Shown here piece after piece: positions 36,400-63,562 of a stretch of 64,000 nt of DNA (within the stretch, counting starts at the first letter, position 1; the number at the start of each line of letters is the position of its first letter). The notes below the pieces were generated by a model that saw only the letters and a list, made by a program, of their open reading frames with translations, was not told the DNA's origin and searched no databases. The DNA is from Escherichia coli (GTDB lineage Bacteria; Pseudomonadota; Gammaproteobacteria; Enterobacterales; Enterobacteriaceae), in NCBI RefSeq assembly GCF_045037415.1, contig NZ_CP173438.1; one strand, given 5' to 3'. The translations under genes and the position numbers were made by a program.

Positions 36400-37215
36400 A
36401 TGAGCGTAAAAGTTATCGTCACAGACATGGACGGTACTTTTCTTAACGACGCCAAAACGTACAACCAACCACGTTTTATGGCGCAATATCAGGAACTGAA
36501 AAAGCGCGGCATTGAGTTCGTTGTCGCCAGCGGTAATCAGTATTACCAGCTTATTTCGTTCTTTCCTGAGCTAAAGGATGAGATCTCTTTTGTCGCGGAA
36601 AACGGCGCACTGGTTTACGAACATGGCAAGCAGTTGTTCCACGGCGAACTGACCCGACATGAATCGCGGATTGTTATTGGCGAGTTGCTAAAAGATAAGC
36701 AACTCAATTTTGTCGCCTGCGGTCTGCAAAGTGCATATGTCAGCGAAAATGCCCCCGAAGCATTCGTCGCACTGATGGCAAAACACTACCATCGCCTGAA
36801 ACCTGTAAAAGATTATCAGGAGATTGACGACGTACTGTTCAAGTTTTCGCTCAACCTGCCGGATGAACAAATCCCGTTAGTGATCGACAAACTGCACATA
36901 ACGCTGGATGGCATTATGAAACCCGTCACCAGTGGTTTTGGCTTTATCGACTTGATTATTCCCGGTCTACATAAAGCAAACGGTATTTCGCGGTTACTGA
37001 AACGCTGGGATCTGTCACCGCAAAATGTGGTAGCGATTGGCGACAGCGGTAACGATGCGGAGATGCTGAAAATGGCGCGTTATTCCTTTGCGATGAGCAA
37101 TGCTGCGGAAAACATTAAACAAATCGCCCGTTACGCTACCGATGATAATAATCATGAAGGCGCGCTGAATGTGATTCAGGCGGTGCTGGAAAATAAACCG
37201 CCGTTTAATCTTTGA
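36400..37215 (+). CDS. ybiV: HAD-superfamily Cof-type sugar phosphatase YbiV (SupH)
   Basis: ORF track 271 aa [26 protein letters not shown]...; paralogous to ybjI. Confidence 0.94.
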
Positions 37216-37256
37216 TTATCACCAATTCAGTTTATTGAGAAAGTGCATGTCATTAT

Positions 37257-37355
37257 ACCGGATACGGCGTGACCGCCTTATTTGGCATACAAAATCATGA
37301 AAATTCAATATATTGCGATACACTACCAGGCCTGATAAGCGTAGCGCACCAGGCA
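37257..37355. repeat. Composite REP/BIME-type extragenic repeat (two REP-like palindromic units flanking an IHF-like ATTCAATATATTG motif)
   Basis: CCGGATACGGCGTGACCGCCTTAT ... ATTCAATATATTG ... AGGCCTGATAAGCGTAGCGCACCAGGCA; a near-identical module recurs at 62052-62150. Confidence 0.75.
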
Positions 37356-37378
37356 ATCTTGCGTTTGTCATCAGTTTC

Positions 37379-37405
37379 AGTAGCCCTGACCATATCAGGG
37401 CTACT
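37379..37405 (-). terminator. Stem-loop downstream of ybiT (probable terminator)
   Basis: AGTAGCCCTGACCATATCAGGGCTACT inverted repeat 10 bp past the ybiT stop. Confidence 0.45.
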
Positions 37406-37414
37406 GATAATAAC

Positions 37415-39007
37415 TTACTCGATCCCTTTACTACGCAGGTAATCTTCGTAATTACCGCTAAAGTCGATCACGCGTTCCGGGGTGATTTCCAGAATACGGG
37501 TCGCCAGGGAGCTTACAAACTCACGGTCGTGAGAAACAAAGATCAGCGTGCCCTGATACAGTTCCAGCGCCATGTTCAGCGACTCAATGGATTCCATATC
37601 CAGGTGGTTGGTCGGTTCGTCCATGATCAGAATGTTCGGCTTCTGCATCATTAACTTACCAAACAGCATCCGCCCTTTTTCCCCACCGGAAAGCACTTTA
37701 GCTGGCTTTTTGATGTCGTCCTGGCTGAACAGCAAACGACCGAGAATACTGCGCACCGCCTGCTCGTCATCGCCTTCCTGCTTCCACTGACTCATCCATT
37801 CGAACACGGTCAGATCATTTTCAAACTCATATTCGTGGTCCTGAGCGTAGTAACCAATGCGCGCGTTTTCAGACCATTTTACGGTGCCGCTGTCCGGTTG
37901 CAGATCGCCCACCAGCGTTTTCAGCAGCGTTGATTTACCGACGCCGTTGGTACCCAGTACCGCCAGTTTTTCACCCACTTCCAGCAGCAGGTTGAGATTT
38001 TTAAACAGTGGACCGTTATCAAACCCTTTAGTCAGACCTTCCACTTCTAGCGCGTTACGGAACAGTTTCTTATCCTGTTCAAAACGGATGAACGGGTTCT
38101 GACGGCTGGAAGCTTTCACCTCTTCCAGTTTGATTTTATCAATCTGGCGCGCGCGCGAAGTTGCCTGGCGAGATTTCGAGGCGTTGGCGCTAAAGCGGCT
38201 AACGAAAGATTGCAACTCAGCAATCTGCGCTTTCTTCTTCGCGTTATCAGCCAGCAGACGTTCACGCGCCTGAGTCGCCGCCGTCATGTACTCATCGTAG
38301 TTGCCCGGATAAACGCGCAGCTCGCCGTAATCCAGATCCGCCATGTGGGTACAAACCATGTTAAGGAAGTGACGGTCGTGCGAGATGATGATCATGGTGC
38401 TGTCACGCTCGTTCAGCACCTGTTCCAGCCAGCGAATGGTGTCGATATCGAGGTTGTTGGTCGGTTCGTCGAGCAGGAGAATGTCGGGATCAGCAAACAG
38501 CGCCTGAGCCAGCAGCACACGCAGCTTCCAGCCAGGAGCAACTTCACTCATCGGGCCGTAGTGCTGTTCCACTGGAATTCCCACGCCAAGCAACAGTTCA
38601 CCAGCGCGAGCTTCCGCAGAGTAACCGTCCATTTCGCCGTATTTCACTTCCAGATCGGCCACTTTATAGCCGTCTTCTTCACTCATTTCCGGCAAAGCAT
38701 AGATGCGGTCACGCTCCTGCTTCACTTCCCACAACTCTTTATGCCCCATGATCACCGTATCCAGCACAGTGAACTCTTCAAAGGCAAACTGATCCTGACG
38801 CAGCTTACCAATGCGTTCGTTGGGATCGAGGGAAACGTTACCCAACGTCGGCTCTAAGTCGCCGCCGAGGATCTTCATAAAGGTGGATTTACCACTACCG
38901 TTCGCGCCAATCAGGCCGTAACGGTTGCCGCCGCCGAATTTGACGGAAATGTTTTCAAACAACGGCTTACTGCCGAACTGCATGGTGACGTTACTGGAAA
39001 CTAACAC
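37415..39007 (-). CDS. ybiT: ABC-F family ATPase YbiT (two ABC domains, no permease domain)
   Basis: ORF track 530 aa; Walker [10 protein letters not shown] and GTNGVGKST; two signature motifs; characteristic ABC-F linker. Confidence 0.94.
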
Positions 39008-46562: not shown

Positions 46563-46786
46563 ATCCATCGCTGATGGTGCAGAACTTTAGTACACGATAA
46601 AAGCGGCTTCCTGACAGGAGGCCGTTTTGTTTTGTAGCCCGCCTCAACGCACTTATTTAGTGCATCCATCTGCTATCCCCAGCTGGTTAAGTAAATTTTT
46701 TGTATCCACATCATCACACAATCGTTACATAAAGATTGTTTTTTCATCAGGTTTTACGCTAAATAATCACTGTGTTGAGTGCACAA

Positions 46787-61770: not shown

Positions 61771-61968
61771 ATGATGCGTAAAGCGCTTCGCGCTAAATTC
61801 GAACAACATGCAGAACTGCGTACACTCTTGCTGGCAACCGCGTCCGCAAAACTGGTTGAGCATACGCAAAATGATGCTTACTGGGGAGATGGCGGTAATG
61901 GTCAGGGCAAGAATCGCCTGGGGTACCTTTTAATGGCGTTGCGCGGACAATTGGCTGCGGAGAAGTAA
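61771..61968 (+). pseudogene. ybiA: ybiA (NADAR/DUF1768 N-glycosidase) C-terminal remnant; N-terminal ~95 codons absent
   Basis: Frame encodes MMRKALRAKFEQHAELRTLLLATASAKLVEHTQNDAYWGDGGNGQGKNRLGYLLMALRGQLAAEK, which looks like the C-terminal third of a NADAR domain; no N-terminal NADAR sequence in any frame between dinG and this point; the 101-aa ORF from 61663 would span the dinG start and LexA box; could alternatively be annotated as a short CDS. Confidence 0.6.
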
Positions 61969-62051
61969 CGCATCGGGTGGCTTGTGGGCGTTAAAACAGA
62001 GAAATCTTTTTGCCGCGCTCGCAAATGGCTGACAAGTGCTTGTTGTGAAAT

Positions 62052-62150
62052 GCCGGATGCGGCGCGAGCGCCTTATCCGGCCTACAAAAACATGCACATT
62101 CAATATATTGCAGAGTTCACGTAGGCCTGATAAGCGTAGCGTATCAGGCA
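62052..62150. repeat. Composite REP/BIME-type extragenic repeat (second copy)
   Basis: GCCGGATGCGGCGCGAGCGCCTTATCCGGCCTAC ... ATTCAATATATTG ... AGGCCTGATAAGCGTAGCGTATCAGGCA; same architecture and orientation as the 37257-37355 copy. Confidence 0.8.
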
Positions 62151-62173
62151 GTTTTGTGTTTGTCATCAGTCTC

Positions 62174-62194
62174 ATGCCGGGCATAGCCCGGCAT
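62174..62194 (-). terminator. Stem-loop downstream of rhlE (probable terminator)
   Basis: ATGCCGGGCATAGCCCGGCAT palindrome 7 bp past the rhlE stop. Confidence 0.45.
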
Positions 62195-62200
62195 AAAAGA

Positions 62201-63562
62201 TTACTGCGCAGCGGCAGGTTTACGCGGACGGCGGCGACGTTGTTGTTCGCCTGCCGGTTTGGCATCGCCGAGACGACGAGACGGTTTTTCTGCGGGCTTC
62301 GCGTTACCAGACTTCGCACCACTTTCCGCACGGCGTGGTTGCTGTTGACCGCGACCACCGCCCTGTCCACGACCGCCGCCACGTTGCTGGCGACCGTTTT
62401 GGATCGGTTCGGCTTTGATTGACGGGTCCGGCTCATAGCCCAGAATCGCAATGCGCGGGATCTCTTTTTTCAGCAGTTTTTCGATATCACGCAGCAGTTT
62501 GTGTTCATCAACACACACCAGCGACAATGCTTCGCCAGTTGCCGCCGCACGGCCAGTACGCCCGATACGGTGAACATAATCTTCCGGTACGTTTGGTAAC
62601 TCATAGTTGACGACGTGCGGCAACTCTTCGATATCCAGACCACGCGCAGCGATGTCAGTTGCCACCAGTACACGAATATCGCCCGATTTAAAATCGGCCA
62701 GCGCACGAGTACGCGCACCTTGCGATTTATTACCGTGGATCGCCGCACTACGGATGCCATCTTTATTAAGCTGTTCAGCCAGATGGTTAGCGCCATGTTT
62801 GGTACGGGTAAACACCAGCACCTGCTGCCAGTTCCCTTTCCCAATCATATGCGACAGCAATTCGCGTTTGCGTTTCTTATCGACAAAGTGAACGTGCTGG
62901 GTCACCTGATCAGACGCAGTATTGCGGCGTGCCACTTCGATTTCCAGCGGGTTGTGCAACAGTTTTTCCGCCAGGGCTTTAATATCGTCAGAGAAGGTCG
63001 CGGAGAACAACAGGTTCTGGCGCTTCGCTGGCAGTTTTGTTAACACGCGACGGATATCGTGGATAAAGCCCATGTCGAGCATGCGGTCAGCTTCATCAAG
63101 GACGAGGATTTCAACCTGATCCAGCTTCACTGCATTTTGATGTTCCAGGTCCAGCAGACGTCCCGGCGTTGCCACCAGCACATCAACGCCGCCGCGCAGC
63201 TTCATCATCTGCGGGTTAATGCTGACACCGCCAAACACCACCAGCGAACGAATGTTCAGGTATTTGCTGTAATCACGGACGTTTTCGCCAATCTGCGCCG
63301 CCAGTTCACGGGTCGGGGTAAGAATGAGCGCACGCACCGGACGACGCCCTTTGGCGTGCGGCTGGCGAGTGATCAGGTGTTGCAACAGCGGCAGCGTAAA
63401 GCCCGCTGTTTTACCTGTACCGGTCTGGGCGCTGGCCATCAGGTCGCGGCCTTCCAGCACCGCAGGGATCGCCTGCTGCTGAATAGGGGTGGGTTCACGG
63501 TAACCCTGCTCGGCAACGGCGCGCAGGATATCAGGGCTTAAACCCAAAGAATCGAAAGACAT
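62201..63562 (-). CDS. rhlE: ATP-dependent RNA helicase RhlE (DEAD-box)
   Basis: ORF track 453 aa; Q-motif PTPIQ, Walker [24 protein letters not shown]; Arg/Gly-rich basic C-terminal tail. Confidence 0.96.

Follow-up and report, generated by a model that had tools for sequence, protein, structure and literature searches.

The two modules in the window (the whole stretch of 64,000 nucleotides of Escherichia coli DNA analysed here) are elements of the BIME-1 type (synonyms RIP and RIB), in each of which an L linker joins a Y to a Z1 palindromic unit. They are best understood as old, vertically inherited copies in convergent intergenic regions, each lying beside a stop-proximal palindrome that would be the surviving right-hand copy of the target; we assign this reading a probability of about 0.88. 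The identity of the modules is in itself already known, BIME-1 being a long-described type of intergenic repeat in E. coli; RIP stands for repetitive IHF-binding palindromic element, and RIB for reiterative ihf BIME. For the BIME-1 family at large, duplication of a whole hairpin at the target and inverted termini resembling those of the Yersinia element YPAL are documented at the level of sequence.

Both copies, designated A (between ybiV and ybiT) and B (between ybiA and rhlE), have the same order of parts in the family alignment: left terminus, Y unit, L linker, Z1 unit and right terminus (Table 1). The Y unit ends in CTAC and is followed by a 35-nt linker that contains ATTCAATATATTG, after which the Z1 unit opens with GTAG. 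The two palindromic units are thus inverted, with their CTAC and GTAG tags facing the linker, an arrangement intact in copy B and mutated in copy A. The IHF-like core ATTCAATATATTG is the same in the two copies and invariant in the consensus of 62 family members. It agrees with the textbook IHF consensus, WATCAANNNNTTR, at 12 of 13 positions rather than at all 13, and the L linker is a putative IHF site in both copies. Repeat-finder and unit searches detect one unit per locus and no tandem array at copies A and B, and Z1-type units, Y-type units and the right-end motif occur at no other place in the 64-kb window, with none expected from dinucleotide shuffles. An earlier note on this DNA had placed the modules at 37257-37405 and 62052-62194 and described a REP-like unit, an A-rich spacer with an IHF-like site and a second REP-like unit. 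The modules are present there with the sequences described, and the order of the three parts is borne out in both copies.

Table 1. Coordinates of the BIME-1 copies, their parts and the neighbouring palindromes in the window.
Feature	Position	Strand	Basis
BIME-1 copy A, full 152-bp unit (decayed copy)	37228..37379	+	boundaries from family alignment
Copy A left terminus CAGTTTATTGAGAAAGTGCAT, degenerate form of consensus CAGATTGCTGACAAAGTGCGC	37228..37248	+	consensus alignment
Copy A Y-type unit, iREP orientation, degenerate, tail ATAC for CTAC	37257..37290	+	sequence reading
Copy A L linker; IHF-like core ATTCAATATATTG at 37303-37315	37291..37325	+	pairwise and consensus alignment
Copy A Z1-type unit, REP orientation, CCAG for GTAG	37326..37354	+	3 mismatches to GTAGGCCTGATAAGCGTAGCGCATCAGGC
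Copy A right terminus TTGCGTTTGTCATCAGTTTCA	37359..37379	+	1 mismatch to consensus terminus; 0 matches expected by chance
Perfect hairpin at the ybiT locus, TCAGTAGCCCTGA-ccata-TCAGGGCTACTGA, 13-bp stem	37377..37407	.	MFE RNA fold
Unoccupied palindrome ATCCATCGCTGATGG, just after dps	46563..46577		
Possible left-copy remnant of the rhlE target palindrome (suggestive only)	62003..62021	.	sequence reading
BIME-1 copy B, full 153-bp unit	62022..62174	+	two-terminus search
Copy B left terminus CAAATGGCTGACAAGTGCTTG	62022..62042	+	two-terminus search, consensus alignment
Copy B Y-type unit (iREP), intact, CTAC end	62052..62085	+	0 mismatches to GCCGGATGCGGCGNNNNCGCCTTATCCGGCCTAC
Copy B L linker; IHF-like core ATTCAATATATTG at 62098-62110	62086..62120	+	sequence reading, consensus alignment
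Copy B Z1-type unit (REP), GTAG intact (at 62121)	62121..62149	+	1 mismatch to Z1 pattern
Copy B right terminus TTGTGTTTGTCATCAGTCTCA	62154..62174	+	1 mismatch to consensus terminus
Hairpin at the rhlE locus, ATGCCGGGC-ata-GCCCGGCAT, 9-bp stem	62174..62194	.	MFE RNA fold

This architecture matches the published definition of BIME-1, in which a y and a z1 unit, present in single copy, are joined by a long conserved L linker, frequently with an IHF site (PMC3333891), the whole measuring ~140 bp (PMC1187871). PMC2817692 identifies the inter-REP sequence as the part that interacts with IHF, and IHF binding by the BIME-1 family is reported through citations there and in PMC3333891. The Y unit of copy B also agrees with the published REP consensus quoted in PMC12306157. 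Nothing essential separates the window copies from BIME-1/RIP/RIB: they share the inverted Y and Z1 units, the L linker with its IHF-like core, the single-unit organisation, the extragenic location and the high copy number, and the one departure is the decay of copy A. BIME-2 and the atypical BIMEs have in common with these copies the Y palindromic unit and an extragenic location, but contain Z2 instead of Z1, short S linkers and tandem arrays, in contrast to the single Y-L-Z1 units found here. The likening of the modules to BIME/RIP elements that bind IHF and gyrase holds for the element type; strong binding of DNA gyrase is reported for BIME-2 and atypical BIMEs and not for BIME-1 (PMC2817692). 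A further relative is RU-3, described as a new enterobacterial repeat (Delihas 2007; PMC2759123), the published 103-nt sequence of which is the Y-L-Z1 core, tatgccggatgcggcg...ttatccggcctac...attcaa...gtaggcctgataag; the limits published for RU-3 exclude both outer termini, however, and the units described here are 50 bp longer. Its target-site duplication is entered as '?' in PMC2229807. Rfam yields sub-threshold matches only, to naRNA4 on the Y unit and to ES036/CssrF on the L linker, the latter scoring 35.2 bits in copy B (62086-62128), just under the gathering score of 37.6, and a weak 21.8 bits in copy A (37291-37333). The K-12 RefSeq record, as retrieved, holds no repeat annotation for this stretch.

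The family to which the two copies belong is large and sharply delimited. A sensitive BLAST search places the copy B module at 40 or more sites per genome in 5425 of 5426 complete E. coli genomes, and an exact 23-base pattern spanning linker and Z1 occurs, among the matches listed, at more than 120 loci in E. albertii, E. whittamii, E. coli, other Escherichia and Pseudocitrobacter, with 24 such loci among the matches listed for one E. albertii genome. From 126 copies with enough flanking sequence, a requirement for recognisable ends on both sides leaves 62 full units, bounded at 151-155 bp with a mode of 153. The family consensus starts with CAGATTGCTGACAAAGTGCGC and ends with TTGCGTTTGTCATCAGTCTCA, and these two ends are imperfect inverted repeats of one another: TTGYGTTTGTCATCAGTYTCA is the right terminus of the unit, and the left terminus is its inverted partner. 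Conservation stops sharply at ...CAGTCTCA. Judged against these boundaries, the extents first given for the modules captured the core and missed ~29 bp on the left, where the true units begin (Table 1).

The sequences immediately outside these boundaries record how the family may have spread. Orthologous loci were collapsed to 42 independent ones, and left and right flanks were compared at a threshold set by the 99th percentile of mismatched-pair controls. Direct repeats of 10-29 bp exceed this threshold at 24 of the 42 loci, with no flanking repeat at the other 18. In 22 of the 24 the repeats lie 0-3 nt from the termini, the offset being 0 at each terminus in most, and 19 of the 24 are predicted GC stem-loops. 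The 8 nt before the left repeat copy are A-rich (mean 4.1 of 8) and those after the right copy T-rich (mean 4.5 of 8), which is the signature of predicted bidirectional intrinsic terminators. The sequence at the right terminus differs from locus to locus across all 42 loci and is usually a hairpin, 28 of the 42 right flanks folding at -8 kcal/mol or lower.

Three pairs of filled and empty sites display the duplication directly, with a single hairpin when the site is empty and two when it is filled. At ysgA-metE, E. coli AH04 has one CGGGTGGTATTACCACCCGG, and E. albertii has hairpin, BIME-1 and hairpin in succession. The tkt-prohibitin pair lies within E. coli: WL297 contains one AGGGCCGCGAAAGCGGCCCTT, and R32_14_1F has AGGGCCGCGAAAGCGGCCCTT on both sides of BIME-1; coverage of the filled-site query reaches 80% or more in 1364 genomes, as would be consistent with occupation of the site. 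At uvrA-yjbR, a single GGCCGCTTTCTGAGCGGCCT in E. coli E20 corresponds to two in E. albertii, flanking BIME-1, and strain 14EC007 carries two tandem units of BIME-1 plus hairpin. For one other locus (L084), the flanks of which are not adjacent in E. coli, no empty site was obtained. The open literature, a scope outside which the primary papers of the 1990s fall, contains no description of flanking-hairpin duplication for BIME-1, and no open paper was found that mentions both 'BIME-1' and 'direct repeats'.

Both the termini and the flanks recall YPAL (RU-2) of Yersinia. As published, RU-2/YPAL (PMC2759123) opens with TTCAGACTGCTGACAAAC and closes with CACTTTGTCAATAACCTCA, and its termini match the BIME-1 consensus at 14 of 15 nt on the left and 12 of 16 nt on the right (26 of 31), a level of agreement that, for this one published sequence, none of 200,000 shuffles reached. 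Target duplications of YPAL, as far as the work of De Gregorio (2006) is summarised in PMC2229807, are variable in length (3-26 bp) and lie at or next to dyad symmetries; the flanks of the BIME-1 family, with their 10-29 bp duplications at palindromes, follow the same pattern. YPAL differs in that it is 168 bp long, is unrelated in internal sequence over most of its length and has neither a Y-L-Z1 core nor an IHF core. The window copies themselves retain only the right-hand hairpin, and no YPAL-like duplication is visible there.

A tentative explanation of the family data, possible rather than probable in our estimate, is that BIME-1 may belong to the YPAL type of miniature insertion sequence, with its Y-L-Z1 core set between YPAL-like inverted termini, and may not be driven by a RAYT enzyme. 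Such an element would integrate at the base of a gene-end palindrome and duplicate the stem-loop (10-29 bp). Its targets would typically be bidirectional intrinsic terminators, and the length of the duplication would be measured by structure. One conceivable route, itself uncertain, is symmetric strand transfer at an extruded cruciform by a hypothetical enzyme. The literature on REP and BIME mobility offers only RAYT-based models of the IS200/IS605 kind, in which inverted termini and flanking repeats have no place. In a 2013 survey, the group that studied YPAL keeps REP/BIME and YPAL-type elements as separate classes, and a 2026 preprint calls the mechanism of REP/BIME insertion not established.

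An alternative of small but appreciable probability is that copies A and B are REPINs, REP doublets spread by the single-copy REP-associated tyrosine transposase (RAYT/TnpA-REP) through a single-strand, IS200/IS605-like route. BIME-1 is indeed a REP doublet of REPIN size, and copy B has at 62121 the GTAG tag 5' of an imperfect palindrome that TnpA-REP requires for binding and cleavage in vitro (PMC3333891). Transposition of the IS200/IS605 type proceeds without terminal inverted repeats and without flanking direct repeats (PMC3333891), however, whereas in BIME-1 conserved inverted termini lie outside the REPs, and 24 of 42 loci show long flanking duplications. Copy A, moreover, has neither tag, GTAG having become CCAG (at 37326) and CTAC having become ATAC, and is probably inert for any REP-specific enzyme. 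It is otherwise colinear with the family throughout and keeps its IHF-like core. Its decay is also evident in searches allowing up to 3 mismatches, which recover neither its left terminus against the consensus terminus, the mismatches being too many, nor its Y unit against the Y pattern.

The hairpins beside the two copies require separate consideration. As the BIME-1 family is extragenic and located at the 3' ends of genes or transcription units, so both window units lie between convergent genes: copy A between ybiV (36400-37215, +) and ybiT (37415-39007, -), and copy B between a remnant of ybiA (stop codon 61966-61968, +) and rhlE (62201-63562, -). The placement of the modules just downstream of minus-strand ybiT and rhlE is confirmed, at a distance of 6-7 nt plus the hairpin: the stop codon of ybiT (37415-37417) is 7 nt away from the hairpin at that locus, and the stop codon of rhlE (62201-62203) 6 nt away from its own. 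Minimum free energy folds of the transcript strand predict three stem-loops at each locus (hairpin, Z1 and Y), with z-scores of -4.9 for copy A and -5.3 for copy B. K-12, E. albertii and another Escherichia species all retain the rhlE hairpin in this position. The ybiT hairpin has two alleles, CCGTCACCCCGA-cagta-TCGGGGTGACGG in K-12 and O157 and CAGTAGCCCTGA-ccata-TCAGGGCTACTG in this strain, which differ at 4 stem pairs. All of these changes are compensatory and none is disruptive, which suggests either that pairing is under selection or that the palindrome undergoes templated correction.

It is improbable that these hairpins are simply Rho-independent terminators of ybiT and rhlE with the repeats merely downstream of them. 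They do resemble such terminators as GC-rich, perfect stem-loops situated directly past stop codons, and many other family members have a flanking hairpin with a T-tract that looks like a genuine bidirectional terminator. The window hairpins differ in that no U-tract comes after them on the transcribed strand. Past the stem, the minus (transcript) strand continues into GAGACUGAUGAC or UGAAACUGAUGAC, the terminus of the element and not a U-run, and the T-run at rhlE is on the wrong side of the stem. No T-run follows either hairpin on either strand, and a scan for consensus terminators returns none in both regions on both strands. The hairpins are therefore not canonical terminators, and the stem-loops that the earlier note called terminator-like are real features with that character in shape only.

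Nor do the hairpins form part of the module, as a structure of REP, spacer, REP, conserved tail and stem-loop would imply. This very improbable reading draws on the perfect stem-loop that starts 0-3 nt from the conserved tail in both window copies and on the frequency of stable hairpins after family copies noted above. It conflicts with the end of conservation at the right terminus and with the lack of any common sequence between the two window hairpins (pairwise alignment, columns 150-190); across the family, hairpins vary at every locus and are already there in empty sites. The hairpins are instead local palindromes at gene ends, on these comparisons not part of the BIME-1 repeat, and it was as locus-specific neighbours that the earlier description of each copy as followed by a hairpin had to be recast.

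The account we prefer for the window is that the hairpin at each locus would be the surviving right-hand copy of a target duplicated when the element integrated. Neither locus has a statistically detectable left-hand hairpin copy, the K-12 orthologues scoring at background, and the target-duplication reading there is accordingly an extrapolation from family members. At rhlE, where the K-12 copy serves as cluster representative and the flank-versus-flank alignment score is likewise at background, the left-hand copy may have decayed. The outer flanks would support this, since AATCTTTT (62003-62010), on one side of copy B, is exactly reverse-complementary to AAAAGATT (62195-62202) on the other. 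In addition, the hairpin arm TGCCGGGC has a similar counterpart in TGCCGCGC (62011-62018), beside the left terminus. No empty rhlE-ybiA site was found in E. coli, 4298 genomes being filled; the low-coverage matches that were inspected are L125, in which IS621 has inserted into the Z1 unit, and L124, in which foreign DNA has taken the place of the sequence. At ybiT the left-hand copy is undetectable in K-12, and in this strain the ybiU deletion has taken away the flank where it would lie.

Comparison of the copies with each other and with their relatives bears on their age. The earlier note had called them near-identical, which does not hold: their identity over the full unit is 76.9%, lower than the family's pairwise median of 85%. 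A pairwise alignment over 212 columns gives 82% mean column identity, and the repeat finder reports two ungapped colinear blocks, of 62 nt at 84% and 52 nt at 88%, with an identical spacing of 24,795 bp. Copy A is identical to the 153-bp family consensus at 126 of 154 positions (82%) and has a median identity of 78% with other family copies; copy B matches the consensus at 133 of 154 positions and its orthologous copies at 97.4% (E. albertii) and 92.9% (K-12). The note had also proposed that its assignment would fall if the two copies aligned at under ~70% identity or the motif did not recur elsewhere in the genome; the identity found lies above that line and the module recurs genome-wide, so the assignment stands, as it does in the comparison with the published BIME-1 definition. 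K-12 carries BIME-1 at both loci, at ~832,263-832,416 and ~857,591-857,742 of NC_000913.3, and E. albertii and other Escherichia species share the rhlE copy, indicating that both insertions are old and inherited. The two copies are thus, by alignment, ordinary members of the family and not recent copies of each other. A recent segmental origin of one module from the other, by intrachromosomal duplication or gene conversion over 24.8 kb, is scarcely credible despite the shared orientation and part order and the near-identity seen by the earlier note, since the two are less alike than unrelated members of the family typically are, closer relatives of each exist elsewhere and the sites were long since filled; recent mutual duplication was rejected on identity.

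The window as a whole is 100% identical to strain SK1144 and to many ST131-like genomes and corresponds to K-12 ~830-862 kb in reverse orientation. It also contains an unoccupied site, the palindrome just after dps (Table 1), which in E. whittamii holds a BIME-1 with a duplicated target. Relative to K-12, ybiU is absent, with ~1.46 kb of sequence missing, and the deletion junction runs from 12 bp past the ybiV stop codon straight into the left terminus of copy A. The ybiA gene is present but has lost 298 bp including its start, through a 5' deletion at ~61768 that lies ~250 bp from copy B. The statement that the modules border differences in gene content is therefore exact for ybiU at copy A and loose for ybiA at copy B. 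On the ybiT side lies a hotspot, for which E. coli shows four or more configurations, a variability that agrees with the reported enrichment of BIME-1 in strain-specific segments (PMC1187871).

At the two loci, the L linker would bind IHF on DNA, an activity established for the family and predicted here. The rhlE and ybiT transcripts may read through the element, in which case the hairpin and the two palindromic units would fold into three stable stem-loops. In this model, the stem-loops would shield the 3' end and dampen read-through, with no canonical U-tract terminator involved.

For annotation, the window copies are two textbook repeats, to be recorded as BIME-1/RIP and masked when new features are sought, and they mark a variable neighbourhood in which the loss of ybiU abuts copy A. 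For the family, the movement of REP and BIME elements has been a standing question for decades, with current models built on the RAYT enzyme. Duplication of a whole terminator in filled and empty site pairs, together with termini shared with YPAL, provides a testable signature of integration that does not fit a RAYT mechanism. If BIME-1 is indeed a YPAL-type miniature insertion sequence, this would explain why RIP/RIB elements are positioned at the 3' ends of transcription units and why termination signals survive on both sides of them, and it would account likewise for the tandem expansion of units of BIME-1 plus hairpin and for the clean loss of whole BIME-1 units.

A direct repeat of 10-29 bp flanks the BIME-1 unit at 24 of 42 independent loci (statistics on comparison sequences L003-L122), and 19 of these 24 repeats are predicted hairpins, as a rule terminator-like. 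In three pairs of orthologous sites with and without the element, the filled/empty pairs listed in the table, the flanking sequence is single in the empty site and double in the filled one. As read from these sequences, such a duplication does not fit insertion by the RAYT/IS200-type route. No description of a flanking direct-repeat or hairpin duplication for BIME-1 was found in the open literature.

The window itself holds one unoccupied site of this kind, the small palindrome ATCCATCGCTGATGG directly past the dps stop codon. In E. whittamii, a BIME-1 lies at the dps site between two copies of the palindrome, and ~20 bp adjoining the insertion are also replaced. At several other loci, the unit of BIME-1 plus hairpin is arranged in tandem, with a period in one example of 182 bp (153 + 29); unequal exchange between the two hairpin copies would be expected to produce such arrays. 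One BIME array, in Escherichia sp. MOD1-EC7003, replaces the middle of ybiA.

Coordinates of BIME-1 copies and associated features (L-numbers denote comparison sequences from other genomes; their coordinates refer to that sequence)
Feature	Sequence	Coordinates
Copy A, ybiV/ybiT	window	37228-37379
ybiV/BIME junction	window	37216-37228
ybiT 3' hairpin	window	37377-37407
ybiT 3' hairpin	L001	29560-29595
ybiT 3' hairpin	L126	365-395
Collapsed BIME-1, ybiU-ybiT, E. coli O157 ATCC 43889	L126	290-366
ATCCATCGCTGATGG after dps	window	46563-46577
BIME-1 at dps site, E. whittamii	L069	2821-2972
Copy B, ybiA/rhlE	window	62022-62174
ybiA deletion	window	~61768
rhlE-ybiA intergenic region (compared with K-12 and L009)	window	61800-62420
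IS621, E. coli 05_3471	L125	~1020-1723
Rfam ES036 match, copy B	window	62086-62128
Rfam ES036 match, copy A	window	37291-37333
Tandem array	L088	11504-12400
Tandem array	L132	255-650
Further tandem arrays	L092, L093 (MOD1-EC7003), L097, L098, L102, L107, L108	
Filled/empty pair, tkt-prohibitin	L130 vs L131	
Filled/empty pair, uvrA-yjbR	L129 vs L019 and L132	
Filled/empty pair, ysgA-metE	L123 vs L017	

At the ybiV-ybiU-ybiT locus, ybiU and its flanks (~1.46 kb of K-12) are missing from the window strain, and the deletion endpoint is exactly the left terminus of copy A. The ybiT 3' hairpin exists as two alleles differing in the loop and in four stem pairs, all of them compensatory, with no pair-breaking substitutions. 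At the orthologous site between ybiU and ybiT, E. coli O157 ATCC 43889 carries a BIME-1 that has shrunk to ~78 bp, a single REP with both left and right termini intact, which looks as if it arose by recombination between the Y and Z1 units with loss of the L linker. Across ~600 genomes, the query match is limited to the coding part of ybiT and the downstream DNA is different; in the two examined (E. coli 2012C-4221 and GMF065; L127, L128), other DNA, which includes a gene for a glycoside hydrolase of family 31, takes its place, and ybiU and BIME-1 are both absent downstream of ybiT.

At the rhlE-ybiA locus, ybiA is a pseudogene in the window, its start removed by a 298-bp deletion. The intergenic region has ~90.7% identity to the K-12-type allele, and copy B is 97.4% identical to its E. 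albertii orthologue versus 92.9% to that of K-12; by sequence comparison, this divergence is uncommonly deep for E. coli core DNA. IS621 (IS110 family) is known to target REPs, and its position in the copy B orthologue of E. coli 05_3471, inside the Z1 unit and directly past GTAG, is consistent with this targeting.

Rfam ES036 (CssrF sRNA) matches the BIME-1 L linker in both window copies, scoring in copy B 35.2 bits, below the gathering score of 37.6, and from these matches the CssrF family seems to have been modelled on the repeat. E. coli-type BIME-1 is also seen on short contigs of assemblies labelled Bacteroides (MAG), Desulfosporosinus, Collinsella (MAG) and Methylobacterium (L027, L028, L086, L087), for which contamination by Escherichia or mis-binning is the most likely explanation.

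At its two ends, the BIME-1 consensus agrees over the outermost 15-16 nt with the termini of the Yersinia miniature insertion sequence RU-2/YPAL, at 26 of 31 positions in all (PMC2759123), a match reached by none of 200,000 shuffles; the interiors of the two elements bear no relation. The terminal likeness suggests a mobilisation system common to BIME-1 and YPAL.
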